From assembly GCA_947164825.1 (NCBI GenBank), contig CAMUYE010000001.1, positions 1 to 60,812 on the forward strand: a stretch of 60,812 bases of DNA, read 5' to 3'. Origin of the DNA: an uncultured Clostridia bacterium. Its GTDB lineage: Bacteria; Bacillota; Clostridia; Oscillospirales; Oscillospiraceae. The notes beneath the pieces were generated by a model. The model worked only from the letters and a program-made list of their open reading frames with translations, was not told the origin of the DNA and did no database searches. Shown piece after piece: positions 5,639-60,812 of the stretch (the first letter of the stretch is position 1; the number at the start of each line of letters is the position of its first letter). The position numbers were made by a program, and so were the translations under genes.

Positions 5639-5748
5639 CTGGGATTTGTAGGGGCCGTAGGGAGGCATCCCTTGATGCCTCCGCCGATGACGATGCGCGG
5701 AGCGATGTGGGCATCGCTCCCTACGGCGCTGCGCGACAAATCCCAATT
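5639..5748. repeat. REPIN-like doublet with outer inverted arms
   Basis: TGGGATTTGT...GTAGGGAGGCATC-CCTT-GATGCCTCC (5657-5682), a 16-nt spacer, then GGAGCGATG-TGGG-CATCGCTCCCTAC (5699-5724)...ACAAATCCCA. Both outer and inner arms are inverted repeats. Confidence 0.85.
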
Positions 5749-15828: not shown

Positions 15829-15908
15829 AGTGATTTCCTCCTTTGTGTTCAGGGATGGCATGTATTATATCCGTTTTACAGGCAAAATGCAAGCATTTTT
15901 TGCAGGAA

Positions 15909-17350: not shown

Positions 17351-18676
17351 TTAGATAGCTGCGATCACCAGCAGGATCGCCAGGATCAAAATCAAGACAC
17401 CAATGACGATCAAGCCTGCGATGGCGCCCTTCTTGAGCATCTTGTAGGTCCGAAGGTAGTTTGCCTTCTTGAGGATGACGCCCACAAGCAGGGCCAGGAT
17501 CGGCAGCAGGAAGCCCAGGATGGCAAACAGCTTGCTGCCGGAGTCGTGGATCGGCGTGTCGAGGATGTAGTTGCTGCCGGACAGGTCGGCTTCCTTGTTC
17601 CGCTGCTCTTCCTCGTAGGCCGCCATCTCCTCGTCGTTGAGGATGGTGATGGACTTCATGCGGATGCCCGCTTCGCGGGTCCGCTTGTATTCCTCGATCT
17701 CCTTCTTGCTGCCCCGGACGAAGTGGTTGTGGCCGATGTCCACAAGCTCCGGCTGCTCCTCGCCGTAATTGTGCATGGAGGGGTCGTAGGTGAAGAGGAC
17801 CTTGTGCTTCTCCAGCTTGGGGTCGGGGATGGGGATGGCGGAGATCAGAGAATGGGTGTAGGGGTGCAGGGGGTAGTCGAAGAGCTCTTCGGTGTCCGCA
17901 ATCTCCACGATGTCGCCCTTATAGATGACCGCGATGCGGTCGGAGACAAAGCGGACGATGGACAGGTCGTGGGCGATGAAGAGGTAGGTCAGACCGCGTT
18001 CGCGCTGGAACTTCTTCATCAGGTTCAGGACCTGGGCACGGATGGACACGTCCAGGGCGGAGATGGGCTCGTCGGCAATGACAAGCTCCGGCTCCATGAC
18101 CATGGCGCGGGCCAGACCGATACGCTGGCGCTGGCCGCCGGAGAACTCATGGGGGTAACGGGTCAGATGCTCGGGCAGCAGACCGACCTCTTCGATGATG
18201 TTCTCCACCTTCTGGACCCGGTCCGCCTCGTTCTCATAAAGGTGGAAGTTGTACAGGCCCTCGGAGATGATGTAGTCGACGGTGGCGCGCTCGTTCAGAG
18301 AGGCTGCCGGGTCCTGGAAGACCATCTGGATGTTGCGGATGACCTCCCGGTCCAGAGAACGGGGGATCTTGCCGGAGATGCGGACGCCCTTGTAGAGAAT
18401 CTCACCGGCGGCGCAGGGGTTGACGCGGATCACGGCACGGCCGATGGTGGTCTTGCCGGAGCCGGACTCGCCGACCAGGGAGAAGGTCTCGCCCTTGTGG
18501 ATATCAAAGCTGGCGTTCTTGACCGCGCGGACAGCATTTTCGCCCTTGCCGAAGGTGATGTCCACGTTCCGGACCTGGAGAAGGATCTCTCTTCCGTCCT
18601 TGTCGATGGGACCGTGCTCCGGCAGGTGAGACTGGGTCTGCGACGGCTGAGTCTTTTTCACTTCATTCTTTGCCAC
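17351..18676 (-). CDS. Opp/Dpp-type ABC ATPase (OppF-like) with ~110-aa C-terminal extension ending in two TM helices
   Basis: GTG start after AAGGAGGG. Walker A GESGSGKT, signature FSGGQRQR, Walker B LVIADEP. The tail ...[63 protein letters not shown] is strongly hydrophobic. Confidence 0.85.
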
Positions 18677-18689
18677 AGTCAGTCCCTCC

Positions 18690-20480
18690 TTAAATGTTGT
18701 GCGCGTGCATCAGCTTTTCGTGGATGTTGTGGATGATCTCCGGCTTCTCGGTCTTCGGCGCTCTGGGGTCAAGAAGCCAAGTCTTGGCGAAGTGGGTCTC
18801 CGTGACCTGGAACATGGGTGGCTCCGCCAGGGTATCGATCTTCATGCAGTACGGGTTGCGGGGCGCGAAGGCGTCGCCGACGATCTTGTTGTAGAGCGAA
18901 GGCGGGGTGCCGGTGATGGAATAGAGCTTCGTATCCCGCTCGGCCAGCTGAGGCAGGGAGGACAGCAGCGCCCAGGTGTAGGGGTGCTGCGGATCGTAGA
19001 AGACCTCTTCCACGTTGCCCAGCTCGATGACCTGGCCGGCATAGAGCACGGCCACGCGGTCGGCCACGTTGGCGACCACGCCCAGGTCGTGGGTGATGAA
19101 GACGATGGTGTAGCTGTACTCCTTCTGCAGATCCTTCAACAGCTTGAGGATCTGGGCCTGGATGGTGACGTCCAGGGCCGTGGTGGGCTCGTCGCAGATC
19201 AGGATCTTGGGCTGGCAGGACAGGGCGATGGCGATAACGATACGCTGCCGCATGCCGCCGGAGTACTGGAAGGGATAGTCGTCAAAGCGCTTGTCGGGGT
19301 TGGGGATACCGACCTTGTGCATCAGCTCCAGGGCACGGTCGCGGGCCTCGGCCTCGGTGCAGTCCTGGTGCTTCAGGATGACGGAGGTGATCTGCTTGCC
19401 GATGGTCAGAACCGGGTTCAGAGAGGTCATGGGGTCCTGGAAGACGGTGGCGATACGGTAGCCGCGGATCTTGGACCACTCCTTGGGGTTCTTGATCTTG
19501 GTCATGTCGATGACGCGGCGGCCATGGAGGACCTCATCGGCGCTTCTCACGTTCAGCTTCTTGAGCTCTTCCTCGGAAACAGGCGTCTCATCCAGATAGC
19601 AGTACAGGGTGATATCGCCGAAGACTCTGGCGCGGGCTTCCTTGGTGCTCAGATCGGCACCCATCATCATGGCCTTCTTGGCGGCCGCTTTGAGCTGGCG
19701 CAGAATCTTCACGCGCTTGAAGGAGCTGTAGCTGCTTGCCGAGAGGTAGAATTCCTTCGCAATGGTCAGGTTGCGTTCGACAGTCTCAGGGCTGATTTCG
19801 CCCGTGATTTGCCCGGCGTGGATCGACTTCAGTTCGGCCATGCGCTGGTTGTAGGCTGTATTATAAGCTGTATCGCTCATGACGGCGGTCTTATGGGCCC
19901 TGAGCGTGGCTTCCTTCTCAGCCTCTTTGCTCTTGATCTGCTTTTCCAGCATATCGATCTGCGCAGTGAGTTCCCGGATCTTGTCCTTCTCGCGCTTGGG
20001 GTCGAGGGTCTGCTTGAGGTTGCCGGCTTCCGTCTTCTGGAAGACCATCTCCTTGATGGCCTCGTCGATGCTGGCCTCTTCCTCTTCGGTCAGGCCGAGT
20101 CTGCGCTCCCGCTCAGACTTCATCTCAACCATTTCGCGGTAGGATTCCGCGCCGAACTCCAGCTTGGAGTACTCGTTCAGCTTGTCCGCGATCCGCTGGA
20201 TCTGGCCCTTGCCGGAGGATTCGAGCCTGACCTTGATATCGGCCAGCTCGTCGTCGTCAAAGACGATGGAGCCTTCGCTGATAAAGCCGTTGGCGTCCAG
20301 CATGCCCGCAAAGGTCTTGGTGAAGACGGATTTACCGGAGCCGGACTCGCCCACGATGGCGATGGACTCGTTCTCGTAGATGTCCAGGGAGATGTTGCGG
20401 ATGGCGGTCAGGATTCTTCCGCGGACGCGGAACTTGACCGACAGGTTCTTGACGGACAGTAATACTTTATTCTCGTTCAT
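18690..20480 (-). CDS. Opp/Dpp-type ABC ATPase (OppD-like) with ~250-aa charged insertion between Walker A and Q-loop
   Basis: Walker A GESGSGKS at aa 44-51 and Q-loop VFQDP at aa ~347. In ordinary OppD as I recall it, the gap is roughly 45-50 residues. Signature YSGGMRQR, Walker B ILICDEP. Confidence 0.85.
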
Positions 20481-26149: not shown

Positions 26150-27265
26150 CTACTTCTGCCCTGCTTCGGCGGCCTGCTCGGCGCGCTTTTGCTCCTCCAT
26201 CACCTTGCCAAGCTCGGCCTGGCGTTCGGGGGAGTCATACAGATGGCAGGCGCAGTAGTGCTCGGGCTCCACCTCGATGAAGTCGGGCGCACAGTACTTG
26301 CAGACCTCCATGCACTCGCGGCAGCGGGTGTGGAACTTACAGCCGCTGGGCGGGTTGGCGGGAGAGGGAATGCTGCCTTCCAGGATGATCCGGTTCATCT
26401 TGTAGTCGGGATCCGGCACGGGAATGGCGGAGAACAGGGCCTTGGTATAGGGATGGAGGGGCTTGGAGAAGAGCTTGTCGGTCTCCGCGTACTCCACCAG
26501 GTTGCCCAGGTACATGACGCCGACGGTGTCGGAGATGTGCTCGACCACGGACAGGTCGTGGGAGATGAACAGGTAGGTCAGGCCGAACTGCTTCTGCAGA
26601 TCCCGCAGCAGGTTGATGATCTGGGCCTGAATGGACACGTCCAGAGCGGAAACGGGCTCGTCGCAGAGGATGAAGTCCGGGTTCAGGGCCAGGGCGCGGG
26701 CGATGCAGATACGCTGGCGCTGGCCGCCGGAGAACTCATGGGGATAGCGGTCCTTGTGGTACTCCGCCAGGCCGCAGGCCTCCATGACGCGGGTGATGTA
26801 GTCGTCGTACTCTTCCTTGGGCACGATGTTGTGCTCCCGGACCGCTTCGCCAATGATCTCACCCACGGGGATTCTGGGAGACAGGGAGGAATAGGGATCC
26901 TGGAAGATGATCTGGATGTCGGGGCGGGCGTGGCGCAGCTCACGCTTGGAGAGCTTGAACACGTCCTTGCCGTTGAAGAAGACCTCGCCCTCCGTCTTAT
27001 CGATCAGACGGAGAATGGTACGGCCGATGGTGGACTTGCCGCAGCCGGACTCGCCCACGAGGCCCATGGTGGTGCCCTTCTTGATGACGAAGGAGACGCC
27101 GTCCACGGCCTTGACGTTGCCGACGGTCAATTTGAAGAAGCTGGACTTGATGGGGAAATACTTCTTCAGGTTCTTTACCACCACGAGGTTTTCGGGATTT
27201 TTCTCCGCGTCCTTAAAGAGATCCGCAGAATAGGCGTCATGGGTCTGAATCGTTTTCTCAGCCAT
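26150..27265 (-). CDS. Opp/Dpp-type ABC ATPase (OppF-like) with Cys-rich oligopeptide-transporter C-terminal domain
   Basis: Walker [10 protein letters not shown], signature FSGGQRQR, Walker B FILCDEP. The C-terminus is CKFHTRCRECMEVCKYCAPDF. Confidence 0.9.
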   Translation of the reverse strand: MAEKTIQTHDAYSADLFKDAEKNPENLVVVKNLKKYFPIKSSFFKLTVGNVKAVDGVSFVIKKGTTMGLVGESGCGKSTIGRTILRLIDKTEGEVFFNGKDVFKLSKRELRHARPDIQIIFQDPYSSLSPRIPVGEIIGEAVREHNIVPKEEYDDYITRVMEACGLAEYHKDRYPHEFSGGQRQRICIARALALNPDFILCDEPVSALDVSIQAQIINLLRDLQKQFGLTYLFISHDLSVVEHISDTVGVMYLGNLVEYAETDKLFSKPLHPYTKALFSAIPVPDPDYKMNRIILEGSIPSPANPPSGCKFHTRCRECMEVCKYCAPDFIEVEPEHYCACHLYDSPERQAELGKVMEEQKRAEQAAEAGQK

Positions 27266-28535
27266 TGTTCATGCCCTCCCCTTCCTGATTTTTCGGTTTC
27301 AGCAGCTCTTCCACGTCCACGGTCTTGGGGTAGCCCAGGATCTCGCCGGTCTCATAGTAGCGGTAGCAGGAGACCACGTGGGTGTCGCTGATCCGGATCT
27401 CGGGAGGATACTTGCCGGAGCAGTGCTCGCAGTGCATCTCGCAGCGATCGCGGAAATAGCAGTAGTTGGGCATATCCACGGGGTTGGGGACGGAGCCGGG
27501 GATGTTGTAGAGCTCGTCCACCTTCTTGCCGACCACAGGCTTGGATTTCATCAGGCCGATGGTGTAGGGGTGCGCGGGATGGTGGAAGATGTCGTCGGCG
27601 GTGCCCTTCTCGATGACGCGGCCGGCGTACATGACCACAACATAGTCCGCCATGCCCGCCACGACGCCCAGGTCGTGGGTGATGAGCATGATGGAGGAGT
27701 TGATCTTGTCCTTCAGATTCTGGAGCAGGTCCAGGATCTGGGCCTGAATGGTCACGTCCAGAGCGGTGGTGGGCTCGTCGGCGATGATCAGACCGGGACG
27801 GCAGGCCAGAGCGATGGCGATGCAGACACGCTGCCGCATACCGCCGGACAGCTCGTGGGGGTACATCTGATAGACGCCTTCCTTGTTGGCGATGCCGACC
27901 AGCTCCAGCATTTCCAGGGTGCGGGCCTTGACCTCTTCCTCGGTCATGTCGGGGTTGTGGAGCTCAATGACCTCGTTGACCTGACGGCCGATGCGGAACA
28001 CCGGGTTCAGGGCGGTCATGGGCTCCTGGAAGATCATGGAGATGTAGTTGCCGCGGAGCTCCTGCATCTTGTCGATGGGCGTGTTGACAATGTTCAGCGC
28101 GGTGCCGTCGCCCATGTTCAGGCGAATCTCGCCGCCCACGGTCTGGCCCGCGGGCCGCTGGAGCAGCTGCATCAGGGACAGGGAGGTGACGGACTTGCCG
28201 CAGCCGGACTCGCCCACGACGCCGACAGTGGAGCACTTGGGAACGTCGAAGCTGATGCCGTCGACGGCCTTGACCGTGCCCACGTCGGAGAAGAAGTAGG
28301 TGCACATGTTGTCGAACTCGACCACGTTGTTGGGATCCCGCATTTTCGTGGTGTAAGCGGCGGGGTTCCTGCCGGCCTGCTCGCGGTCCCTCTCGAGCTT
28401 CTTGGTGATCTTGCGGTTGAACTTGGTGATGCGGCGGGAATCCTTGGCGGAGATATAGGAAGTCTTTTTCTTCTTGTTCTCCTTCTCCTCGGGCTCGCCG
28501 ACAGAGGTTTTCTTCAGTTCTTCTTTGTCAGACAT
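27258..28535 (-). CDS. Opp/Dpp-type ABC ATPase (OppD-like) with ~85-aa Lys-rich N-terminal extension
   Basis: Trimmed to ATG 28533-28535 (AAGGAGG upstream). Walker A GESGCGKS, signature LSGGMRQR, Walker B LIIADEP. Confidence 0.88.
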
Positions 28536-35135: not shown

Positions 35136-35852
35136 CTACAGCTCCCGGAAAACGTCGCCCAGCTTCTCGTGGAGGACCAAATCGGCCTCGCCGTCGAAGG
35201 GAGTCTCGTCCCGGTTGATCAGCACCAGGCGTTTACCCCGGTAGTAGCGGATCATGCCCGCGGCAGGCCAGACCGTCAGGGAGGTGCCTGCCACGATCAG
35301 CAGGTCGGCCTCGGAAATGGCCCGGGCAGCCCGGTACATCACGTCCTGGTCCAGGCTCTCCTCGTAGAGCACCACGTCGGGCTTGACGATCCCGCCGCAG
35401 TCGCAGAGGGGCACGCCCTTGCTGTTTTTGACGAACTCGGCGGAGTAGCTCTTATGGCATCGGACGCAGTAGTTCCGCAGGACGGAGCCGTGGAGCTCCA
35501 GGACGTTTCGGCTGCCGGCCTTCTGATGGAGGCCGTCGATATTCTGGGTAACCACGGCCAGGAGCTTCCCTTCCCGCTCCCAGCGGGCCAGGACCTTGTG
35601 GGTCACGTTGGGCTCGAAGCCCAGGGGCAGCATCTTCTCCTTGTAGAACTCGTAGAACTCCTCGGGCTTCCGCTCAAAGAAGGAGTGGGAGATGATGGTC
35701 TCGGGGGGATACTTGAATTTCTGGTTGTACAGACCGTCCACGCTGCGGAAGTCGGGGATGCCGCTCTCGGTGGAGACCCCGGCGCCGCCGAAGAAGACGA
35801 TCTTTCGGGCCTCATCGACCCAGGTTTTCAGCGTATCTAATTTGGAACTCAT
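35136..35852 (-). CDS. cobB: NAD-dependent protein deacylase, Sir2 family
   Basis: Trimmed to ATG 35850-35852 (GGAGGAGG upstream). GAGVSTESGIPDFRS, QNIDGLH, and zinc ribbon CVRCHKSY...CDCGG. The start lies 41 nt inside the trmD 3' end. Confidence 0.88.
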   Translation of the reverse strand: MSSKLDTLKTWVDEARKIVFFGGAGVSTESGIPDFRSVDGLYNQKFKYPPETIISHSFFERKPEEFYEFYKEKMLPLGFEPNVTHKVLARWEREGKLLAVVTQNIDGLHQKAGSRNVLELHGSVLRNYCVRCHKSYSAEFVKNSKGVPLCDCGGIVKPDVVLYEESLDQDVMYRAARAISEADLLIVAGTSLTVWPAAGMIRYYRGKRLVLINRDETPFDGEADLVLHEKLGDVFREL

Positions 35853-36597
35853 GGTCTTCCTCCTCCAATTCCTGAATGAATTTCTTTTCGGCCTTGGTTT
35901 TGTCGGGCAGGCGGAGCCGGGCGAAGAGGTCCGGGCGGCGGCGCATGGTGCGGAGAATGGACTGCTTCCGCCGCCAGCGGGCCACCTTGGCGTGGTCACC
36001 GGAGGTCAGGATCTCCGGCACGGGGCGGTCGTGCCAGACGGCGGGGCGGCTGTACTGGGGGTATTCCAGCAGGCCGTTCCAGTGGCTCTCCTCCTCAAAG
36101 CATTCCGGGTCCGAGAGCACGCCCGGCAGCAGGCGGCAGACCGCGTCGGTGATCGCCATGGCCGCGATCTCTCCGCCCGTCAGGACGAAATCGCCCAGGG
36201 AGAGCTCCTCGTCCACGCACTCGTCGATGAAGCGCTGGTCGATGCCCTCGTAGTGGCCGCAGACCAGGATCAGGTTCTCGTAGGCGGCAGCCAGGCGGCG
36301 GGCGCAGCCCTGGTCGAAGACCTGGCCGCAGGGGGACATATAAATCGTATGCGGACGGAGGCCGATTTCTTCGCAGATATGGGCCCAGCAGCGGTAGAGC
36401 GGGTCCGCCTGCATGACGGCTCCCCGGCCCCCGCCGTAGGGATAGTCGTCCACCTGGTTCTGCTTGTTGGTGGTGTAGTCCCGGATCTGGTGGGTGCGGA
36501 TCGTGATAAAGCCCCGCTCCTGGGCCCGGCCCAGGATCGATTCGGACAGCACGTCTCCCACAGTATCCGGGAAGAGGGTCATAATGTCAATTCTCAT
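35812..36597 (-). CDS. trmD: tRNA (guanine37-N1)-methyltransferase
   Basis: MRIDIMTLFPDTVGDVLSESILGRAQERGFITIRTHQIRDYTTNKQNQVDDYPYGGGRGAVM...VLTGGEIAAMAITDAV (trefoil-knot SAM site). Confidence 0.95.
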   Translation of the reverse strand: MRIDIMTLFPDTVGDVLSESILGRAQERGFITIRTHQIRDYTTNKQNQVDDYPYGGGRGAVMQADPLYRCWAHICEEIGLRPHTIYMSPCGQVFDQGCARRLAAAYENLILVCGHYEGIDQRFIDECVDEELSLGDFVLTGGEIAAMAITDAVCRLLPGVLSDPECFEEESHWNGLLEYPQYSRPAVWHDRPVPEILTSGDHAKVARWRRKQSILRTMRRRPDLFARLRLPDKTKAEKKFIQELEEEDHEFQIRYAENLGR

Positions 36598-37153
36598 CCG
36601 TCTCCATCCCTTCGATCAGGTTCACGTTGACGTAACCAAGGGTGAGGTCGATGGCGGGGACGAAGGTCTTCACGTTGGGGATCATATACGCCTTCTCCCC
36701 TTTTACGACCCAGACGTCGGAGGACGGCATGGAGAGGATCTCGGTGATCCTGCCGATCTCCGCGCCGTCGGCCCGGACCGGCATGCCGATCAGGTCCGCC
36801 TGGAAGACCGTGCCCGCAGGGATGCGGGAATCGTCCCGGGCGATGGAGAGCACCTTGTCCCGGAGCTTCTGGGCGTCCTCCACGGTGTCGACGCCCTTGA
36901 ATTTGATCAACACGCAGCTCTTCTGGACGCGGCTCGATTCCACCGCCAGCGCCGTAGGGGTCGGCGTCCCCGACGGCCCGCGGGTATCAGAAATCGACAG
37001 GTTCGGGGCGTCGAGGACGCCGCCCCCTACGAGATAAAAGGTCTTGAACCGGGTCAGAAATTCCGGGCTGTCGGCCCAGGGCAGGACCTTGACCTCACCC
37101 CGGATCCCGTGGGTGGAGACGATCTTCCCGGCTTCAAGGTATGTTTCATTCAT
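36587..37153 (-). CDS. rimM: 16S rRNA processing protein RimM carrying an in-frame REPIN-like insertion
   Basis: Trimmed to ATG 37151-37153. The N-terminal barrel (LEAGKIVSTHGIRGEVKVLPWADSPE) and the PRC barrel (FQADLIGMPVRADGAEIGRITEILSMPSSDVWVVKGE) are in the same frame on both sides of aa 41-68 (LVGGGVLDAPNLSISDTRGPSGTPTPTA), which is encoded by the repeat. Confidence 0.88.
   Translation of the reverse strand: MNETYLEAGKIVSTHGIRGEVKVLPWADSPEFLTRFKTFYLVGGGVLDAPNLSISDTRGPSGTPTPTALAVESSRVQKSCVLIKFKGVDTVEDAQKLRDKVLSIARDDSRIPAGTVFQADLIGMPVRADGAEIGRITEILSMPSSDVWVVKGEKAYMIPNVKTFVPAIDLTLGYVNVNLIEGMETDEN
36954..37030. repeat. REPIN-like doublet copy 3, located inside the rimM reading frame
   Basis: GTAGGGGTCGGCGTCCCCGACGGCCC (36954-36979), 25 nt, GGGGCGTCGAGGACGCCGCCCCCTAC (37005-37030). 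Same architecture and spacing as copies at 797-873 and 2078-2154. Confidence 0.85.
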
Positions 37154-37182
37154 GCTTCGGTCTCTCCTTCCGGGAGGTTTTT

Positions 37183-37398
37183 GCGGGCAGATTGCCCGCG
37201 CTGCAGTTCTCATACTGAACTCCCATAGAAACCTTTAATCTGTTTCGGCAGAAATTGTGTCATACTTCGTTGTCGTCCTTGCCGGGCGTCAAGCCCGCCT
37301 GCGTCCTCCGCCTCGTCTGACGCAATTCCTGCACGGAACATTTTTCAATCTTTCTATGGGAGTTCAGTATCAATTCTCAATTTTCAATTCTAAATTCC
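37183..37398. repeat. palindromic core + 7-bp array, interrupted by a MITE-like insertion
   Basis: GCGGGCAGATTGCCCGCGCTGCAGTTCTC [159-bp insert] CAATTCTCAATTTTCAATTCTAAATTCC. The same core GCGGGCAGATTGCCCGCGCTAC followed by a heptad array occurs at 46941-47001. Confidence 0.75.
37212..37370. mobile_element. MITE-like element, 159 bp, 20-bp perfect terminal inverted repeats, no coding capacity
   Basis: ATACTGAACTCCCATAGAAA (37212-37231) is the exact reverse complement of TTTCTATGGGAGTTCAGTAT (37351-37370). The flanks CAGTTCTC (37204-37211) and CAATTCTC (37371-37378) match at 7 of 8 positions as direct repeats. Confidence 0.6.
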
Positions 37399-37435
37399 AA
37401 AAAGGGCCGCTGCTCTTGAAGCAGCAGCCCTTTTT
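37399..37435 (-). terminator. intrinsic (bidirectional) terminator after the KH-domain gene
   Basis: AAAAAGGGCCGCTGCTC-TTGA-AGCAGCAGCCCTTTTT, directly after the stop at 37439. Confidence 0.75.
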
Positions 37436-37438
37436 GGC

Positions 37439-37666
37439 TTAATCTACGATCTCCACGCTGACACGGATGCCCTGGCGCTGCGCCACGGACTTCATAATCG
37501 CGCGGATTTCTCTGGCGATCCGGCCCTCGCGGCCAATGACCTTGCCCATATCCTCGGGGGCAACACGAAGCTCCAGGACCAGGGGGTCGCCCTCATAGGA
37601 CTCCACCGTGACCTGCTCCGGATGCTCCACCAGGTTGCGGGCGATATAGAGCAACAGTTCCTTCAT
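37439..37666 (-). CDS. KH-domain RNA-binding protein (YlqC/UPF0109 family)
   Basis: 75 aa. MKELLLYIARNLVEHPEQVTVESYEGDPLVLELRVAPEDMGKVIGREGRIAREIRAIMKS. Conserved position between rpsP and rimM. Confidence 0.9.
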   Translation of the reverse strand: MKELLLYIARNLVEHPEQVTVESYEGDPLVLELRVAPEDMGKVIGREGRIAREIRAIMKSVAQRQGIRVSVEIVD

Positions 37667-37683: not shown

Positions 37684-37923
37684 TTACAGAACGCCGGCCT
37701 TCTTCAGCAGTCCTCTGACAGTATCGGTGGGTTGCGCGCCGTTCTTGATCCAGGTCTGGGCCTTCTCCGCGTCCACGGTGATGGCAGAGGGATTGGCCTG
37801 GGGATCGTAGGTGCCGATCTCTTCGATGCAGCGGCCGTCGCGGGGGCTGCGGGAGTCAGCGACAACAATGCGGTAGTAGGGGTTCTTCTTGGCGCCCATG
37901 CGTCTCAGTCTGATTTTAACCAT
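37684..37923 (-). CDS. rpsP: 30S ribosomal protein S16
   Basis: [41 protein letters not shown].... Confidence 0.97.
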
Positions 37924-37953
37924 GATGATTCTCCTTATTGTTTATAATGATTA

Positions 37954-37995
37954 TTTCATTTTCAACTTTCAATTTTCATTTCAACTTTCAACTTT
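37954..37995. repeat. AT-rich 7-bp tandem array (ATTTTCA/ACTTTCA) between ffh and rpsP
   Basis: ATTTCATTTTCAACTTTCAATTTTCATTTCAACTTTCAACTTTT, abutting the ffh stop codon (37996-37998). Confidence 0.8.
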
Positions 37996-39357
37996 TTACA
38001 TGCCCGGGAAGCCGCCCATGCCTGGGAAGCCGCCGCGCTTCTGCAGCTTTTTCAGTTTCTTGTTGGCTCCCTTGCCGGAGAACTGCTTGATCATCTGCTG
38101 CATGGTCTGGAATTGCTTCAGCAGCTTGTTCACGTCCTCCACCCGGGTGCCGCTGCCGGCGGCGATGCGCTTTTTGCGGCTGGAACCCAGGACGTTGGGA
38201 TTCTCCCGTTCGTAGGGCGTCATGGACCGGATGATGGCTTCGGTGCGGCCCATGGCCTTTTCGTCCACCTGGACGTCCTTCATGGCTCCCATGCCGGGGA
38301 TCATGCCGATGAGGTCCTGGAGGTTGCCCATGTTTTTGAGCTGGTTGAGCTGGTCCAGGAAATCCGTCAGGGTGAACTTGTTCTGGCGCAGGCGCTCCTC
38401 CAGCTCGGCGGCCTTCTTTTGGTCGATGGCCTGCTCCGCCTTTTCGATGAGAGAGAGCACGTCGCCCATGCCCAGGATCCGGCCTGCCATGCGGCCGGGA
38501 TGGAAGGGCTCGATCTGATCCAGCTTCTCGCCCACGCCGATGAACTTGATGGGCTTGCCGGTGACGGCCTTGACGGACAGGGCCGCGCCGCCCCGGGCGT
38601 CGCCGTCCAGCTTGGTGAGCATGACGCCGTCGATGTCCAGCCGCTCGTTGAAGCTCTGGGCAGCGTTCACCGCGTCCTGGCCGGTCATGGCGTCCACCAC
38701 CAGCAGGATCTCCGTGGGCCTGAGCTCGGCCTTGATGGCCTGCAGCTCCTGCATGAGCTTTTCATCCACGTGCAGACGGCCCGCGGTATCCAGGAACACC
38801 ATGTCGTTGCCGTGCTGCTGGGCGTGGCGCAGACTGGCCTTGGCGATCTTCACGGGATCGTCCTGCCCCATCTGGAAAACGGGGATGTCCAGCTGGCCGC
38901 CCACCACCTCCAACTGCTTGATGGCGGCGGGGCGGTAGACGTCGCAGGCCACCAGCAGGGGGCGCTTGTTCTGGGTCTTCTTGAACCAGCCGGCGAGCTT
39001 GGCGCCGTTGGTGGTCTTGCCCGCGCCCTGGAGGCCCACCAGCATCACGATGGTGGGGCCGTTGGAAGCCATGGTCAGCTTCTGGTTCTCGCCGCCCATC
39101 ATGGCGGTGAGCTCCTCGTTGACGATCTTGACCACCATCTGAGCGGGATTCAGACCCTCCAGCACGTCGCTGCCCACGCAGCGCTCCGTGACGGTCTTGG
39201 TGAAGTCCTTGACGACCTTGTAGCTCACGTCCGCTTCCAGCAGAGCCATCTTGATCTCGCGCATGGCCTCCTTGACGTCGGCAGGCGTCAGGCGGCCCTT
39301 GCTCCGCAGCCGCTGAAAGGCGGCGGAGAGCTTTTCAGTTAAGCCTTCGAATGCCAC
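37996..39357 (-). CDS. ffh: signal recognition particle protein
   Basis: GTG start after AAGGAG. GLQGAGKTT, DTAGRL, TKLDGDARGG, and a Met-rich M domain with C-terminal GFPGMGGFPGM. Confidence 0.97.
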   Translation of the reverse strand: MAFEGLTEKLSAAFQRLRSKGRLTPADVKEAMREIKMALLEADVSYKVVKDFTKTVTERCVGSDVLEGLNPAQMVVKIVNEELTAMMGGENQKLTMASNGPTIVMLVGLQGAGKTTNGAKLAGWFKKTQNKRPLLVACDVYRPAAIKQLEVVGGQLDIPVFQMGQDDPVKIAKASLRHAQQHGNDMVFLDTAGRLHVDEKLMQELQAIKAELRPTEILLVVDAMTGQDAVNAAQSFNERLDIDGVMLTKLDGDARGGAALSVKAVTGKPIKFIGVGEKLDQIEPFHPGRMAGRILGMGDVLSLIEKAEQAIDQKKAAELEERLRQNKFTLTDFLDQLNQLKNMGNLQDLIGMIPGMGAMKDVQVDEKAMGRTEAIIRSMTPYERENPNVLGSSRKKRIAAGSGTRVEDVNKLLKQFQTMQQMIKQFSGKGANKKLKKLQKRGGFPGMGGFPGM

Positions 39358-39389: not shown

Positions 39390-39550
39390 CGGAATTGAAA
39401 ATTGAAAGTTGAAAATTGAAAATGGAGGTGTTTTTCAGATTGCCATCTGAAAAGCAGAAATGAAACCGGCTTGAAAGCTGATCTCTATCTTTTCAGCGTT
39501 CAAATGGCAATTTGAACGATCCCTCAACTTTCAACTATCAATTATCAATT
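39390..39550. repeat. composite element: left array (GAAAATT/GAAAGTT) + two AT-rich hairpins + right array (inverted)
   Basis: GGAATTGAAAATTGAAAGTTGAAAATTGAAAAT ... GGAG..TTTTCAGAT-TGCC-ATCTGAAAA ... GTTCAAAT-GGCA-ATTTGAAC ... CCTCAACTTTCAACTATCAATTATCAATTT. The right array encodes the last residues and the stop of ylxM. Confidence 0.8.
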
Positions 39551-42575: not shown

Positions 42576-42602
42576 GCGCTTTCCTCCTTTCGGGGGAGTT
42601 CA

Positions 42603-42711
42603 TAAGTAAGAAGTAAGAAGTAAGAAGCAGGAAGTAAGCGGACAAGCGATGCTTGTCCCTACATTATAATTCTCAAGATAATTCTCATTTCTCACTTCTC
42701 AATTCTCAATT
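42603..42711. repeat. composite element: (GAAGTAA)n array + GTAG-headed REP + (AATTCTC)n array
   Basis: TAAGTAAGAAGTAAGAAGTAAGAAGCAGGAAGTAAG C GGACAAGC-GAT-GCTTGTCC CTAC ATTATAATTCTCAAGATAATTCTCATTTCTCACTTCTCAATTCTCAATTG. Confidence 0.85.
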
Positions 42712-46291: not shown

Positions 46292-46305
46292 ATGTACAAC
46301 CTCCT

Positions 46306-46375
46306 GTGAAGTGAGAAGTGAGAATTGAGAAGTGAGAAGTAAGATGTAAGATGTAGGGACAAGCATTGCTTGTCC
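46306..46375 (+). repeat. heptad array (GTGAGAA/TTGAGAA/GTAAGAT) + GTAG-headed REP
   Basis: GTGAAGTGAGAAGTGAGAATTGAGAAGTGAGAAGTAAGATGTAAGAT GTAG GGACAAGC-ATT-GCTTGTCC. The same REP stem occurs at 42640-42662. Confidence 0.85.
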
Positions 46376-48375: not shown

Positions 48376-48477
48376 GAATTGAGAATTGAGAGTTGAGAAT
48401 TGAGAATTTTCGGAGTTTCGCAAATTGCAATTTGCGAAACACATCCATTTTCAATTCTCAATTCTCAGTTCTCAATT
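48376..48477. repeat. composite element: (GAATTGA)n array + GGAG + perfect 26-nt palindrome + inverted (ATTCTCA)n array
   Basis: GAATTGAGAATTGAGAGTTGAGAATTGAGAATTTT CGGAG TTTCGCAAATTGCAATTTGCGAAA CACATCC ATTTTCAATTCTCAATTCTCAGTTCTCAATTG. The right array encodes QLRTEN-TGA of rluB. Confidence 0.88.
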
Positions 48478-49192: not shown

Positions 49193-49294
49193 GAAGTTGA
49201 AAGTTGAGAATTAAAAATTGAAAGTGATCGGAGTTTTGCAGATTGCAATCTGCAAAACACATTCATTTTCAACTTTCAACTATCAATTTTCAAC
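49193..49294. repeat. composite element homologous to 48376-48477
   Basis: GAAGTTGAAAGTTGAGAATTAAAAATTGAAAGTG ATCGGAG TTTTGCAGATTGCAATCTGCAAAA CACATTC ATTTTCAACTTTCAACTATCAATTTTCAAC. The right array supplies the dacB stop (TGA, 49290-49292). Confidence 0.88.
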
Positions 49295-50294
49295 TGGCGG
49301 GTGGCCAGGAAACGGGCACCTCGGCGACGCATTTGCCGTTCAGGTACACTTTGACCGTACCGGCGTGGGGAAAATCCGGGACGTAGACCAGGCGGGGCTC
49401 CTCTCCGGGAGCGAGGGAGAGCGTCAGATCCGCCTGCGCGATCAGGGTCAGGTCACCGACCCGCATGATCGGCTGGCCTTTGACCGCCGTCTGCTCCTGC
49501 CGGAATTGGGCGAAGCCCCAGTCCAGCAGGGCCATGTGGTCCTGCCAGTCGGCGGGATCGTTGACCGTGACGCAGATCAGGGTCCGGCCCTCCCGCTCCG
49601 CCGCGCTGACCAGGAGCCGCCCCGCCGCCCGGGTATACCCGGTCTTCACCCCGATGCAGCCGGGGCAGCGCCAGAGGAGCTTATTGTGGTTGGTCAGCAT
49701 CCGATCCCCGGACACGACAGCCGTCTTCGCGGCGGCGATGCGCCGGAACTCCGGATTCTGCAGAGCCGCCGCCGTCAGCAGGGCCAGATCCCGGGCGGAG
49801 CCGTAGTTGCCCTCCTGATCCAGGCCGTGCGGGTTGGCGTAATGGGTGTTTTGCAGGCCGAGCCTGCGGGCTGCTTCGTTCATGCGATCCACGAAGGCCG
49901 TCTCGCTGCCCGCCGTGTCAATGGCCAGGGCCAGGGCGGCGTCGTTGCCGGAATGGAGCATGGTGCCGAGAAGCAGCTCCTCCCGGGTCAGGGTCTCCCC
50001 TTCCTGCAGGTACAGAGACGAGCCCTCCACCCCCACGGCCTCCGGGGGGACGGTCACGGGACGGTCCAGATCCCCGGCCTCACAGGCCAGCCAGGCTGTC
50101 ATGATCTTTGTGGTGGAGGCGATCAGCCCGGGATCGTCCGGGTGCCGGGACCAGAGCAGCGCTCCGGTGTCGGCGTCCATCAGCACGCCGCGTCCTGCGG
50201 AGACGGAAGGCGCGGCCTCAGCGGCGGCCGCGGGCAGGCAGAGACTGCCGACAGCGAAAAGGAGTGCCGTCAGCAGAAAGAAAAGTCGTTTCAT
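49290..50294 (-). CDS. dacB: D-alanyl-D-alanine carboxypeptidase (peptidase S11, PBP5-type)
   Basis: Signal peptide and SxxK active site (ASTTKIMT), SGN (HSGND), KTG (VKTGYT). The dacB assignment rests on its position next to scpA/scpB and rluB, as I recall for Bacillus. Confidence 0.8.
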   Translation of the reverse strand: MKRLFFLLTALLFAVGSLCLPAAAAEAAPSVSAGRGVLMDADTGALLWSRHPDDPGLIASTTKIMTAWLACEAGDLDRPVTVPPEAVGVEGSSLYLQEGETLTREELLLGTMLHSGNDAALALAIDTAGSETAFVDRMNEAARRLGLQNTHYANPHGLDQEGNYGSARDLALLTAAALQNPEFRRIAAAKTAVVSGDRMLTNHNKLLWRCPGCIGVKTGYTRAAGRLLVSAAEREGRTLICVTVNDPADWQDHMALLDWGFAQFRQEQTAVKGQPIMRVGDLTLIAQADLTLSLAPGEEPRLVYVPDFPHAGTVKVYLNGKCVAEVPVSWPPAS

Positions 50295-50864: not shown

Positions 50865-51581
50865 TTACGCAACCGCGTTCTTGCCGGTTTCTTTCTCTTT
50901 GTCTTCTTTTTCTTTGTCTTTTCCGCCGGCGAGTTTTTGACGGATGAAAAGCGCCAGGGCTTTGCCCGCAAATTTCAGGAGCAGGAGCACGACGCCGCCG
51001 ATCCGGAGCCGGACCCGCAGTTCCGCCTCCAGGTCGGTCTTGGAGGCTGTGAAGTCGGGATACACCGCGATCTTCTTTTCCTTGATCCGGAACGCTTGCT
51101 CCAGGATCGGCATGGCGATGCCGATGGCCTCCCAGGCCTTGCCGATGGTCTCGGCGGTTTTGGCCGGGTCGCCTCCCGCCAGGGCGGCGCGGACCCGGAG
51201 CCGGGTGACCGTAAGCTTCCGGTGGAAGAACTGGCCGACAAATTTCGCGCCCAGCTTCGCCCAGGGGATGATCTCTCTGACCTTCTCCGGCAGGGGCTTC
51301 TTGGGCTTTTCCGGCTCTTCGGGCTTGGCGATCAGGCTTTGCGCCTGTTTCTTTTTCTTCTTTTTCTCCTTGGCCGCGGCCTTCTTGGCGTCCTTCTTTG
51401 CTTTCTTCGCTTCGGCCTTTTCCCGCTTCTTCCGGGACATCGGCTTCTTCGGCAGGATGCCGATCCGGATGAAGAGGATCGTCAGCTTCAATTCGATCTC
51501 GTCATGGTATCGGAAAATGACGCCCACGGGGATGCATCCGATCAGGAAGATGACGGCGGCAATGATCAGGAATACCCTCAT
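50865..51581 (-). CDS. DUF2953 (YtfI-like) sporulation-associated membrane protein with Lys-rich linker
   Basis: An N-terminal TM, ILFIRIGILPKK, a long KKxKK linker and a C-terminal TM. Its position upstream of ytfJ matches my recollection of Bacillus. Confidence 0.7.
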   Translation of the reverse strand: MRVFLIIAAVIFLIGCIPVGVIFRYHDEIELKLTILFIRIGILPKKPMSRKKREKAEAKKAKKDAKKAAAKEKKKKKKQAQSLIAKPEEPEKPKKPLPEKVREIIPWAKLGAKFVGQFFHRKLTVTRLRVRAALAGGDPAKTAETIGKAWEAIGIAMPILEQAFRIKEKKIAVYPDFTASKTDLEAELRVRLRIGGVVLLLLKFAGKALALFIRQKLAGGKDKEKEDKEKETGKNAVA

Positions 51582-52234
51582 TCAGCCTTCGCCTCCTCTG
51601 CCGGTTGATCGGAGGCTTCTGCCTCGGGCGGGCGGCCAATGGCCGCCCCTACGGCGCGGTCCCCTGTTGCCTGTTGCCCGCTGCCTGTTGCCTCGCCGCC
51701 GTCCTCGGCGGCGGTGCTGAACTGCACCTTCTCCATCTCCGGCAGCTCGTCCAGGGACTCCAGACCGAAGGTGCGGAGGAAGTCGGGGGTGGTGCGGTAG
51801 AGGATGGGGCGGCCCGGGGCTTCCAGGCGGCCGTCTTCCTCGATGAGCTTCTTGTTCAGCAGAGCCGAAACGGAATACGCGCTGTCCACCCCCCGGAGCT
51901 TCTCCACGAAGGCCTTGGTGGTGGGCTGGTAGTAGGCGATAATGGTGAGGGTCTCCAGCTGGGAGGCCGAGAGCTTCGGGGGCTTGCGGGTCTCCAGGGC
52001 ACGGGTGACCCAGGGGGCCAGGTCGTTCTGGGAGCACATCTGCCAGCTGTCCTCCAGCCGGAGGATGCGGATGCCCCGGCGCTCGAAGGCGTAGAGGTCC
52101 ATGAGCTCCTTCATGACGGCCCGGATCTCGTCGGGGTCGGTCTCGGTGACGAAGCTGAGCCGCTCCGTCTCCACCGGCTCCCCGGCGGCGAACAATACTG
52201 CCTCGCAGATGCGGGCAAGCTCCTTATGATCCAT
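51578..52234 (-). CDS. scpB: segregation and condensation protein B with repeat-encoded C-terminal tail
   Basis: ICEAVLFAAGEPVETERLS...LSASQLETLTIIAYYQPTTKAFVEKLRGVDSAYSVSALLNKKLIEE (two winged helices). The tail GGEATGSGQQATGDRAVGAAIGRPPE is encoded by 51630-51694. Confidence 0.9.
   Translation of the reverse strand: MDHKELARICEAVLFAAGEPVETERLSFVTETDPDEIRAVMKELMDLYAFERRGIRILRLEDSWQMCSQNDLAPWVTRALETRKPPKLSASQLETLTIIAYYQPTTKAFVEKLRGVDSAYSVSALLNKKLIEEDGRLEAPGRPILYRTTPDFLRTFGLESLDELPEMEKVQFSTAAEDGGEATGSGQQATGDRAVGAAIGRPPEAEASDQPAEEAKAE
51630..51694 (-). repeat. composite element inside scpB: (GGCAACA)-type heptad array + GTAG-headed REP
   Basis: Minus strand: GAG GCAACAG GCAGCGG GCAACAG GCAACAG GGGAC CGCG CCGTAG GGGCGGCC-ATT-GGCCGCCC. 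Same module order and same reading frame as the metG copy. Confidence 0.85.
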
Positions 52235-53015
52235 TCGCTTCCTCCTTTCCCGGCACCCGCAGCAGCCGGACGGCGGTCTCTCCGCCCTCCTCGCTCAGCT
52301 CCACGGCGTTGGTCCGGCACAGCTCCAGCACGGCCAGGAAGGTCGCCACGATCTCAGAGCGGCTGCGGCAGCCCCGGAAGAGGCGGCGCAGGGCGCTGAC
52401 GCCCCGGAGAACCAGCTTTTTCAGCAGCTCCGCGGTCTTTTTCGTGACGGGGTAGGGCTCCCGGCCCACGATGCCCTCGAAGCTGGCCCGGGGCGGCGGG
52501 AGCTGGGCCTTGCTGCGCTCGGAAATGCTCTCGAAGGCCCGCAGCAGGTCCGCGGGCTCGTGGCGGTAGCGGTAGGTCCTGTCCCGCTCAAAGGGCTCCG
52601 GGGCCTTGGGAAATAGGCCCAGGCCCAGCTCGTTCCGCCCCTCCAGGAAGGCCGCGGCGGTCCGGACCCGGTCGATGGCCTCCTGGCGCTGACGCTCCTG
52701 GAGAGACTGGATCAGCTGTTCCATCTCGGACAGGGCCTCGGCCTGCTCGGCGGCGGAGAGCAGCATCTTGGTCTTGATGAGCATGAGATGAGAGGCCATG
52801 GCGATAAACTCGCTGGCGATCTCCATGTCCATGCGCTTCATCTCTTCCATCCAGGCCAGGTACTGCTCCAGGATCGCCGTGATCGACACGTCCTGGATCT
52901 CAATTTTGTTTTTGCTCAGCAGGAGCAGGATCAGGTCCAGGGGGCCGTCGAAATCCCCGGCGGTCTCGTCATGGGCCTTCATCACACCTGTGAGGTGGTA
53001 ATTCGGTTCGTTCAT
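52224..53015 (-). CDS. scpA: segregation and condensation protein A
   Basis: The last 263 codons of ORF 52224..53729, from ATG 53013-53015. FDGPLDLILLLLSKNKIEIQDVSITAILEQYL.... The upstream part of the ORF overlaps the M50 gene out of frame and is rejected. Confidence 0.9.
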   Translation of the reverse strand: MNEPNYHLTGVMKAHDETAGDFDGPLDLILLLLSKNKIEIQDVSITAILEQYLAWMEEMKRMDMEIASEFIAMASHLMLIKTKMLLSAAEQAEALSEMEQLIQSLQERQRQEAIDRVRTAAAFLEGRNELGLGLFPKAPEPFERDRTYRYRHEPADLLRAFESISERSKAQLPPPRASFEGIVGREPYPVTKKTAELLKKLVLRGVSALRRLFRGCRSRSEIVATFLAVLELCRTNAVELSEEGGETAVRLLRVPGKEEANGS

Positions 53016-56900: not shown

Positions 56901-56966
56901 TGCAGCTCCGCAGCGGCTGCGCAGCTGCGCGGTCCCTGCGGAGATTCCGCGAAAGGAGGCGTCCGT

Positions 56967-59606: not shown

Positions 59607-59631
59607 CACCCCCCGGAAAGGAGGCGTCCGT

Positions 59632-60812
59632 TTGATTTTTCTGTTCCTCCTGGCAGCCGCCTCTCTTCTGGGCGGTCTCCTTGGCTCCGTTCTCTCGAAT
59701 CAACCCCGCCGCCGGCTCCTCCTGACCGCCCTGTTCCTGGCCCTGGCTGCGGCGGCCCTGTTCCTGGGGGGACTTTGCCTGTTGGCCCGGACCGCGAGCC
59801 TCACCGCCGCCATCGACCGCTTCTTCCCGGACCGCCCCGCCAAGCTCCTGGGCTGCGGCCTGCTCCTCGGCCTCTGCGTCCTGCTGGGCCTCCTGCTCGG
59901 CGTCCTCCGGTCCAAGGGCCTGCGCCGCTATTTCCGTAGCGTGTCCGGCAGCCGCTCCCATCGGGCCGCGATCCTCGCCGCCCTGGGCGGCAGCCTGCTC
60001 CTGTTCGCGGGCTGGGCCTTTCTGACCTGGACCCCGACCCCAGCGCCCATCTGCCTCAACGAGCTCTGCTGCGCCAACTTCTCCCTGTTCTCCGACGAAA
60101 ACGGGAACTGCGGCGACTACATTGAACTCATCAACACCGGCGACGCCCCCGCGGATCTGGAGGGCTATTACCTCTCCGACAACCCCAAACACCGGGATCG
60201 CTTCCGCCTCCCCGCCCGGACCCTGGAGCCGGGGGAAATCCTCCTGCTCTGGGCCGACGGCACGGGCAAGTCCGGCGTCGACACCGGCGGCAGCATTCAC
60301 CTAAGCTTTTCCCTGAACTCCGGCGAAACGGTCTATCTCAGCTCCCCCCGGGGAACCCTCCTGGATCAGATCACAGTCCCGGAGCGATACAAGAATATCT
60401 CCCTCTCCCGGCTGGACGACCAGTGGGTTCTGGCCCAAGGCACGCCTACGATGGACAACGGCAGGGGCGCCCTCTTCACGCCTCCAACCCTCGATCCCCC
60501 GACCCTCAGCCTGGCTGCGGGCTTCTATGAAGAACCCCAGACCCTGACCCTCACCGCCGCCCCCGGCTGCGAGATCCGCTATACCCTGGACGGTTCTCCC
60601 CCGGGGTTGGACAGCCTGCTCTATGAAGGCCCCCTGACTCTGACGGATCTCTCCGACCAGCCCAACCGGGTCGTCAGCCAGCCCAACACCACCCCGGACC
60701 GCAGCGGCGCGATCACGGAGCCCGTGGACAAGGGTACGGTGCTCCAGGCCGCGGCCTTCGACGCGGCGGGCAGCCGCAGCGAGACCGTCACCGCCGTCTA
60801 CTTCATCGGCGA
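59632..60812 (+). CDS. second LTD-CotH family paralog, N-terminal ~393 aa (runs off the window end)
   Basis: Not in the ORF track (no stop in window). TTG 59632 follows the same GGAAAGGAGGCGTCCG leader. MIFLFLLAAASLLGGLLGSVLSNQPRR...ICLNELCCANFS...YIELINTGDAPADLEGYYLSDN...FYEEPQTLTLTAAPGCEIRYTLDGS... is collinear with 56967..59564. Confidence 0.8.
   Translation, partial: MIFLFLLAAASLLGGLLGSVLSNQPRRRLLLTALFLALAAAALFLGGLCLLARTASLTAAIDRFFPDRPAKLLGCGLLLGLCVLLGLLLGVLRSKGLRRYFRSVSGSRSHRAAILAALGGSLLLFAGWAFLTWTPTPAPICLNELCCANFSLFSDENGNCGDYIELINTGDAPADLEGYYLSDNPKHRDRFRLPARTLEPGEILLLWADGTGKSGVDTGGSIHLSFSLNSGETVYLSSPRGTLLDQITVPERYKNISLSRLDDQWVLAQGTPTMDNGRGALFTPPTLDPPTLSLAAGFYEEPQTLTLTAAPGCEIRYTLDGSPPGLDSLLYEGPLTLTDLSDQPNRVVSQPNTTPDRSGAITEPVDKGTVLQAAAFDAAGSRSETVTAVYFIG

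Follow-up and report, generated by a model that had tools for sequence, protein, structure and literature searches.

How does a palindromic repeat come to lie, in frame, inside the gene for the ribosome-maturation factor RimM, and what has kept it intact there? The question is raised by a repetitive extragenic palindromic (REP) doublet in the rimM gene of an uncultured Oscillospiraceae bacterium, located in a 60,812-nucleotide (nt) stretch of contig CAMUYE010000001.1 (60.8 kb, hereafter the window). A first-pass annotation of the window had described the element as a REPIN-like doublet translated within rimM, and this description holds: the element belongs to a three-copy repeat family, occupies codons 42-67 and leaves the RimM open reading frame (ORF) intact. 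The reading we favour, with rather better than even confidence, is that a passenger REP doublet is tolerated in a permissive turn of RimM and is kept intact by selection acting on the nucleic acid. Recent horizontal spread is its main rival.

An in-frame REP doublet in rimM

A repeat finder run over the window grouped three 80-nt copies into a single family, D11, at 795-874, 2076-2155 and 36952-37031, the last of which lies in rimM (Table 1). This copy is 86% identical to the first and 92% complementary to the second. The palindrome proper, GTAGGG...CCCTAC, is translated from V42 to T67 as VGGGVLDAPNLSISDTRGPSGTPTPT, exactly as the first-pass annotation had written it. The core 13-mer, GGCGTCCTCGACG, has 30 matches with at most two mismatches where 3.8 are expected (about eight-fold), a count that no shuffle out of 100 attained. 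Read inwards from its outer end, each unit begins GTAGGGG..., giving the termini GTAGGGG / CCCCTAC; each is a short, GC-rich, self-folding palindrome, and the family is repeated and mostly intergenic (two of the three doublets in 60 kb), all of which are features of GTAG-tagged REPs. Two inverted REPs with a short spacer are also the layout of a REPIN. REPINs form populations of near-identical copies around a master sequence; among the few copies compared here (three doublets in the window), the arms are near-identical and the spacers differ.

The two intergenic copies have arms of 35-36 nt that are 86-89% complementary and lie 7-11 nt apart (inverted pairs I8 and I9), a layout shared by the rimM copy. 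Alignment of the copies shows near-identical REP arms and spacers that are equal in length but differ in their central ~12 nt, that of the rimM type being GTGTCGATTTCTGATACCCGCGG; the earlier statement that all copies share one spacer is thus right about length and wrong about sequence. The rimM copy deviates from the intergenic consensus at two bases. The first change, GAGGAC to GGGGAC in the sense strand, turns a U-A pair of the long mRNA hairpin into U.G. The second, GGCCCC to GACCCC, is private to the window and introduces a C.A mismatch into the small mRNA hairpin of that REP, appearing as a G.T wobble on the antisense strand only. The proposal that this arm has drifted in a way that keeps its own hairpin is therefore only partly correct.

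In the mRNA sense the whole doublet folds at -61.4 kcal/mol (z = -5.2, 200 shuffles), as expected from the stable mRNA hairpin that had been anticipated, and the 5' REP unit by itself folds at -15.3 kcal/mol. Only frame 1 of the mRNA-sense doublet is open: the first codon of frame 2 is the TAG within GTAG, and frame 3 is interrupted by a TGA of the spacer. The doublet thus sits in the only stop-free sense frame and is expected to be read through with 26 added residues. No Rfam 15 family reached its gathering threshold on the element; the sole match, MIR1151, is a chance one (28.3 bits against a threshold of 90). The hairpin was also rejected as an intrinsic terminator, since no T-run follows it and the only nearby terminator-like site comes after the KH-domain gene upstream.

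A predicted disordered loop in the RimM N-terminal barrel

The rimM product matches the Pfam RimM N-terminal domain (PF01782, E = 4.9e-18) and PRC_RimM (PF24986, E = 1.8e-09) and scores 105.6 bits against TIGR02273 (cut-off 66.2), so that the N-terminal barrel and the C-terminal PRC barrel of the family are both present above curated cut-offs. The five best PDB matches of the predicted model in Foldseek are all RimM structures (2f1l, 3h9n, 3a1p, 2qgg and 2dyi). A protein search recovered 878 relatives, the best 120 of which (126 to 229 residues) were used for comparison. All of their length variation falls at one point, between FKTFYL and ALAVESSRVQK. Close orthologues free of repeats have 5-6 residues here (NNGTEA in L009, SDASP in L014 and DRGARP in L016; also L018-L021 and L033), and Haemophilus influenzae RimM (3h9n) has 8. 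The short turn of the repeat-free orthologues indicates that the 26-residue segment is lineage-specific rather than a homologous protein segment. Alignment of the region around residues 41-68, which had been recommended as a check, accordingly found no counterpart of a 28-residue segment in orthologues that lack the repeat.

In an AlphaFold2 model built on the alignment, the mean predicted local distance difference test (pLDDT) score is 82, and the scores drop below 50 for residues 44-62, which separate strands 38-41 and 67-77 of the N-terminal barrel. Because the low scores lie between two barrel strands, we read the insert as an addition to a β-turn of this barrel, predicted to form a disordered surface loop, which is the placement that the first-pass annotation had suggested modelling for. 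The predicted tryptic peptides that span the repeat are TFYLVGGGVLDAPNLSISDTR and GPSGTPTPTALAVESSR.

The loop as an insertion hot spot

Of the 120 RimM proteins closest to that of the window, about 100 have extra sequence in this loop, drawn from at least six repeat families and their composites. The window's doublet, which we term type A (signature VGGGVLDAP...), is found in 17 of the 120. Type B, in which two GTAG REPs enclose two small hairpins (VGSDAHIAPVIAAGNDAAAARRQEASGDASLR), accounts for 15; type C, which is not GTAG-tagged (KPSPSGEG..AVKAVTDEG), for 16; type D, another GTAG REP doublet (..GRPMAAPTA), for 18; and type F (HPSSGFRETPDATFP) for seven. Composites (D+F, D+E, A+B, B+C, C+D and B+D) of up to 68 residues make up a further 13, and 14 loops of at least 8 residues are degenerate remnants that could not be classified. 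Short loops of at most 7 residues, without any signature, number 18, and two proteins, also without a signature, were not parsed. In their DNA, all inserts consist of GC-rich hairpins.

Cassettes A, D, E+D and that of L017 have common junctions and differ only in their interiors (CTC|GTAGGG and CCCTAC|GGCG in L006 and L007; CCCAAC in L017). Nearest neighbours in trmD DNA are frequently of unlike type: the window (A) and L091 (B) at 97.3%, L092 (B) and L085 (A) at 92.4%, L017 (D) and L011 (C) at 91.9%, and L008 (D-like) and L009 (no insert) at 90.7%. Judged by these pairs, cassette turnover at the RimM loop is fast. Monophyly of the type-A carriers was not seen in a neighbour-joining tree of ffh+rpsP+KH+trmD; as this tree has missing data and no bootstrap, we place the weight on the trmD neighbours and on the pair formed by the window and L091. 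The L089 cassette (protein P0070) is a chimera in which the type-A 5' REP unit is followed by 12 nt and the last three type-B hairpins, a structure that demonstrates recombination or replacement within cassettes.

Cassette exchange within the species

The conspecific contig L091 (GCA_024712465.1, JAMQYI010347173.1) carries a type-B cassette of four hairpins at 437-741, corresponding to 36930-37215 of the window. The two are 96.4-98.8% identical at the nucleotide level over ~2.3 kb covering the KH gene, the rimM flanks, trmD and the next gene. Against a background divergence of ~2.5%, their differences cluster from -19 to about +60 around the insert, the upstream 19 nt holding four of them and the downstream 60 nt about six together with an indel. 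Upstream, the variants in this cluster are those of L092, another carrier of type B. The cluster is the footprint of a recombination tract of ~180 nt that imported a foreign cassette. The direction was probably B replacing A in L091, because L090 and L001 share the flanks of the window.

Conservation of the type-A cassette

Type-A rimM DNA was compared in 11 lineages (the window, L001, L002, L005, L032, L082, L085-L088 and L090). The cassette lies at one site and in one orientation in all 11; its spacer is identical in 10, and the GGGGAC variant is kept except in L086 and L088, the latter being a decaying copy whose 3' arm is degenerating. The rimM-type spacer pattern has four matches among metagenome contigs, all within rimM, and the intergenic doublets of the window and of L002 carry other spacers together with GAGGAC. 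By these sequence criteria the type-A cassette is orthologous across at least 11 lineages.

Third-codon-position mean pairwise diversity among type-A genes is 0.049 inside the insert against 0.343 in the rest of rimM, and diversity at four-fold sites is 0.042 against 0.385. When L088 is left out, none of the 14 four-fold sites in the insert varies, compared with 39 of 51 in the rest of the gene. The lowest third-position value of any other 26-codon window of rimM is 0.246. Between L001 and L002, there are no differences over the 81 positions of the insert and 102 over the 474 of the flanks. Diversity inside the insert, listed by codon position, is 0.098/0.035/0.049, which does not fit constraint at the protein level.

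The 5' REP unit is invariant in the 11 lineages apart from its first three bases in two of them, and it is kept in L088 and L089. Since it stays unchanged while the 3' arm decays (L088) or is replaced (L089), the constraint, if real, may target the REP unit and not the long hairpin. Cassette B behaves similarly: of its 31 third positions 0-2 differ, compared with 37-53 of the 155 flanking ones. Three of the variable positions of this cassette fall in hairpin loops, which is suggestive, although there are just five such positions in all. The non-GTAG cassette C diverges like its flanks (0.13-0.32 against 0.13-0.25) and thereby serves as an internal control.

Selection, recent spread and other explanations

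On the reading we favour, a GTAG-tagged REP doublet occupies a β-hairpin turn of the RimM N-terminal barrel in a genus-level clade of uncultured rumen Oscillospiraceae and would be read through as a disordered surface loop of 26 additional residues that leaves RimM intact. The turn is permissive, a place where the many GC-rich palindromic repeats of these genomes accumulate, nest and decay, and whole cassettes are swapped between lineages via short-tract homologous recombination. The type-A nucleotides have stayed almost unchanged while neighbouring codons diverged, and we infer that the cause was purifying selection on the nucleic acid, that is, on REP or hairpin identity, and not on the peptide.

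Several observations weigh against selection of this kind. No compensatory substitutions were found (0 of 31 pairs changed on both sides, and shuffles do equally well), so there is no positive evidence for selection on base pairing itself, and for type A the enrichment of variable columns at unpaired positions is only marginal (p = 0.05-0.1). Many loops hold decayed remnants, and in L088 the 3' arm is decaying, so any constraint is not universal. Type A was recognised by sequence, and strongly decayed descendants would fall under the degenerate class, an ascertainment bias which, by itself, cannot account for 81 nt of complete identity between genes whose flanks differ at 21% of positions. Finally, replacement of a ~180-nt tract is seen directly between L091 and the window; type-A carriers are scattered among B, C, D and uninserted genes, both in the flanking-gene tree and among trmD neighbours; and a minority of pairs share 24-60 nt of identical flank (95th percentile, 16 nt).

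These last three observations support the main rival, namely that type A is a recent allele, spread across diverged species by short-tract homologous recombination or by element-specific exchange, and that its low diversity reflects its age. The flat profile of diversity over codon positions in the insert is likewise what young neutral sequence would give. We regard this explanation as a serious one, although clearly less probable than selection. The conservation valley is sharp and ends on average within a few bases of the element: within 15 nt of it third-position diversity is already 0.23-0.28, and the stretch of identity adjoining it on either side has a median of 3 nt, which equals the random expectation. 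The insert of L002 is identical to those of L001 and L082, yet L002 differs from both at -4 and -7. Homologous recombination should instead bring at least 20 nt of flank on each side, as it did in L091. Cassette B, moreover, would need to have arrived at the same low diversity independently.

Two explanations assign the cassettes a function, and we think neither of them likely. The first is that the RimM turn is a dedicated landing pad for the exchange of cassettes between species and that the GTAG cassettes A and B are functional nucleic-acid elements under strong purifying selection across the genus; their role could then be to set rimM-trmD expression as a hairpin in the mRNA, or to offer a DNA site to a RAYT (a Y1 transposase) or a host protein. 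The second, held with similarly low confidence, is that the long hairpin (about -55 to -61 kcal/mol) or one REP unit has been co-opted as a cis-element in the rimM-trmD mRNA, where it could block 3' exonucleases, provide an RNase III site or pause translation and so set RimM/TrmD output, or else could be a DNA site bound by one of the proteins just named. Co-option would account for nucleotide conservation above that of the protein-coding core of rimM, with four-fold sites nearly invariant, for a 5' REP unit that outlasts its 3' partner in L088 and L089, and for the position of three of the five variable sites of cassette B in hairpin loops; the terminator-like hairpin after the KH gene also allows that rimM-trmD expression is set separately. 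It sits poorly, however, with the lack of covariation, with the lack of an Rfam family at threshold, with the missing T-run that would make an intrinsic terminator of the hairpin, and with close relatives that do well with other cassettes, decayed remnants or no insert.

Concerted evolution, in which ectopic gene conversion from the many other genomic copies overwrites that in rimM again and again, would explain why the 5' REP unit equals the family consensus (for example the copy at 2078-2103), and it predicts the sharp edges of conservation at the ends of the element. We consider it very improbable: the spacer and the GGGGAC variant belong to the rimM copies specifically and persist across lineages, the intergenic copies of the window and L002 have different spacers and GAGGAC, and all four metagenome matches to the rimM-type spacer are within rimM. 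As the cause of the conservation, ectopic conversion was rejected on the strength of the rimM-specific spacer and variant. Slighter still is the chance of a role for the loop at the protein level, such as a lineage-specific contact in the assembly of the 30S subunit. Most type-A proteins do have nearly the same peptide; but conservation is as high at synonymous as at replacement sites, most of the few substitutions alter the amino acid (V52L, S55T/P, N51S, T65A and G62E), the loop is predicted to be disordered, and relatives carry unrelated peptides or none. An assembly artefact, frameshift or pseudogene, against which the annotation had itself cautioned, is for practical purposes ruled out by the recurrence of one in-frame junction, an intact 188-residue ORF and both Pfam domains in 11 assemblies produced independently by different studies, and by a fold that is confident outside the loop.

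Genomic context and other repeats in the window

A scan of species-representative genomes sets the window among metagenome-assembled genomes of uncultured rumen Oscillospiraceae from sheep, cattle, goat and buffalo, the best match at the level of RimM being 88%. The minus-strand operon runs ffh (37996-39357), rpsP (37684-37923), the KH-domain gene (37439-37666), rimM and trmD (35812-36597), the last two overlapping by 11 nt. Between the KH gene, which it follows immediately, and rimM there is a terminator-like hairpin with a T-run (37406-37428, minus strand), so that expression of rimM-trmD may need read-through or a separate promoter. Between this terminator and rimM lies a 158-nt element (37213-37370) resembling a miniature inverted-repeat transposable element, with terminal inverted repeats of 19 nt (TACTGAACTCCCATAGAAA) and a duplicated TGA at its two ends. 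The element is missing from L091, where the empty site reads AATTGA|GAACTG, and L090 holds one terminal repeat.

Table 1. Positions of the rimM doublet, its parts and related features in the window
Feature	Positions	Strand	Remarks
In-frame GTAG-tagged REP doublet (REPIN-like)	36954-37030	minus	77 nt, codons 42-67 of rimM; family D11, inverted pairs I2/I3
5' REP unit, mRNA sense, GTAGGGGGCGGCGTCCTCGACGCCCC	37005-37030	minus	Equals family consensus, e.g. copy at 2078-2103
Spacer with weak inner stem-loop	36978-37004	minus	Sequence specific to rimM copy
3' REP unit, mRNA sense, GGGCCGTCGGGGACGCCGACCCCTAC	36954-36977	minus	rimM-specific GGGGAC variant and one window-private base
Intergenic copy of doublet	797-873	minus	G-variant REP comes first on minus strand
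Intergenic copy of doublet	2078-2154	plus	Nearest to rimM copy (92%)
rimM coding sequence	36587-37153	minus	188 residues, stop included; ORF and translation, Pfam, TIGR02273 and fold matches
GTAG REP in methionyl-tRNA synthetase linker	14126-14161	minus	Translated VGADAHIGPP
AT-rich heptamer repeats	37365-37396, 37943-37988, 39392-39421, 42596-42711, 46301-46358, 48376-48477, 49264-49295		D8, D10, I4, I5, I10, I15

The rimM gene is not the only one in the genome with such an insert, as two further genes in the window carry in-frame REPs. In the methionyl-tRNA synthetase ORF (13765-15864, minus strand), the linker before the C-terminal tRNA-binding domain (14100-14230) holds three in-frame repeats, namely the GTAG REP of Table 1, a second hairpin, GGCGCACACTGTGCGCC, and GCAACAG heptad repeats. 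This linker is 67 residues long against 27-33 in most orthologues, and close relatives (P0124 and P0125) have other inserts at the same place. In the ScpB-like ORF (51581-52294, minus strand), the C-terminal tail (51600-51700) has in-frame GCAACAGG repeats followed by the GTAG REP GTAGGGGCGGCCATTGGCCGCCC, translated VGAAIGRPP. The presence of heptad repeats, GGGGAC and a REP together in both genes suggests a composite repeat family. Over 266 kb of the clade we counted 56 GTAG hairpin units, 41 outside ORF interiors and 15 inside; of these 15, rimM accounts for ten, and two others are spurious, arising from an over-extended AlaX-like ORF. Permissive disordered segments of these genomes thus gather REPs generally, the RimM turn being the most saturated of the examples found here.

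The two intergenic doublets are inverted relative to each other and form part of longer, 84% complementary arms of 119 nt (769-887 and 2064-2182). Only one gene stands between them, encoding an AlaX-like tRNA-editing protein on the minus strand (about 895-2020), and the arrangement recalls a RAYT flanked by REPs. A RAYT was rejected at 895-2020, the ORF encoding the AlaX-like tRNA-editing protein and no transposase. An intergenic cluster at 5648-5725 resembles a bacterial interspersed mosaic element (BIME) and contains three unlike GTAG-type hairpins, GTAGGGGCC, GTAGGGAGGCATCCCTTGATGCCTCC and GGAGCGATGTGGGCATCGCTCCCTAC, the third of which is also the first REP unit in the type-B rimM cassette of relatives. 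Tandem repeats of the AT-rich heptamers AATTGAR / AAGTGAG and their complements occur in many intergenic regions, often as inverted pairs flanking genes. Large diverged direct repeats were also found at 56951-58118 / 59616-60783 and 17786-19277 / 26375-27863 (families D1-D4 and D9). One pair is 81-85% identical with a spacing of 2665 nt, and the others form four copies, 62-88% identical, that look like ABC-transporter ATPase genes; these repeats are tandem or dispersed gene duplications.

Relation to known systems

GTAG/CGTC-tagged REPs are short GC-rich stem-loops, mostly intergenic and often present as inverted dimers (Di Nocera, De Gregorio and Rocco 2013, BMC Genomics 14:522, PMC3733652). 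The same survey reports a minority of REPs lying wholly within ORFs in several species, more than half of these inserts being dimers or groups that encode 20-30 residues, and different REPs at about the same site in recB of two Xanthomonas species; its authors argue that intra-ORF REPs may be neutral, sitting in flexible linkers or loops. The rimM element matches this description as a GTAG-tagged inverted dimer within a loop-encoding part of an ORF. That a REP had entered an essential gene was considered unusual by the first-pass annotation; the insertion stands, but it is less unusual than was thought, given that in-frame REPs had already been described (PMC3733652). Beyond the surveyed cases, one loop of RimM holds at least six repeat families and their composites across a clade, the cassette is exchanged by recombination within a species, and its DNA is far more conserved than the silent sites of the host gene. 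The words Firmicutes, Clostridia, rimM and ribosom- are absent from the main text of the survey, and a literature search for rimM with 'repetitive extragenic palindromic' returned nothing relevant. In-frame REPs as such are thus already known, while the hot spot, the exchange by recombination and the nucleotide conservation were not found described in the literature searched.

REPINs consist of two inverted REPs with a short spacer that form a long hairpin; they are multi-copy, vertically inherited and long-lived, and are described as extragenic and associated with a RAYT (Bertels and Rainey 2011, PMC3116915). The rimM doublet differs in being intragenic, and within the 60.8-kb window the gene between the intergenic copies is AlaX-like and no RAYT. 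The composite cassettes of relatives cluster unlike REP units and small hairpins (four hairpins in type B; D+E+D+D, with 68 residues). In this they are like the BIMEs of Escherichia coli, which are mosaic clusters of REPs. BIMEs are intergenic, whereas the clusters in RimM are translated. In E. coli, the rimM gene itself is important but not strictly essential.

The palindromic elements of Rickettsia, the classic example of in-frame insertion and one that the GTAG/CGTC survey also cites, were reportedly described by Ogata and co-workers in 2000 and 2002 and are said to be in-frame mobile palindromes in protein genes. They are read through in housekeeping genes, adding a peptide to a protein that stays functional, and are thought to land in surface-exposed regions. 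The rimM element resembles them in mode only, as an in-frame palindrome that is read through, so the comparison is one of function and not of family: the Rickettsia elements are probably unrelated in sequence, belong to an obligate intracellular alphaproteobacterium and are spread over many genes.

Implications

In-frame palindromic repeats are selfish DNA that lengthens proteins, and they reveal which protein segments tolerate arbitrary sequence. The case presented here extends in-frame REPs to gut and rumen Firmicutes, a group that goes unmentioned in the GTAG/CGTC survey (PMC3733652). It also amounts to a natural experiment in which one β-turn of one conserved protein has been sampled in about 100 variants, from 5 to 68 residues long and drawn from at least six repeat families. 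The RimM loop could serve as a strain-level marker and offers a ready-made permissive site for tagging RimM. If the turn were in fact a dedicated landing pad, which we doubt, the cassette would be a REPIN with a position-specific function inside a coding sequence. More generally, the cassette is the slowest-evolving DNA in rimM, which tolerated junk does not predict; its slow evolution implies either site-specific selection on REP sequences or the spread of cassettes between species.

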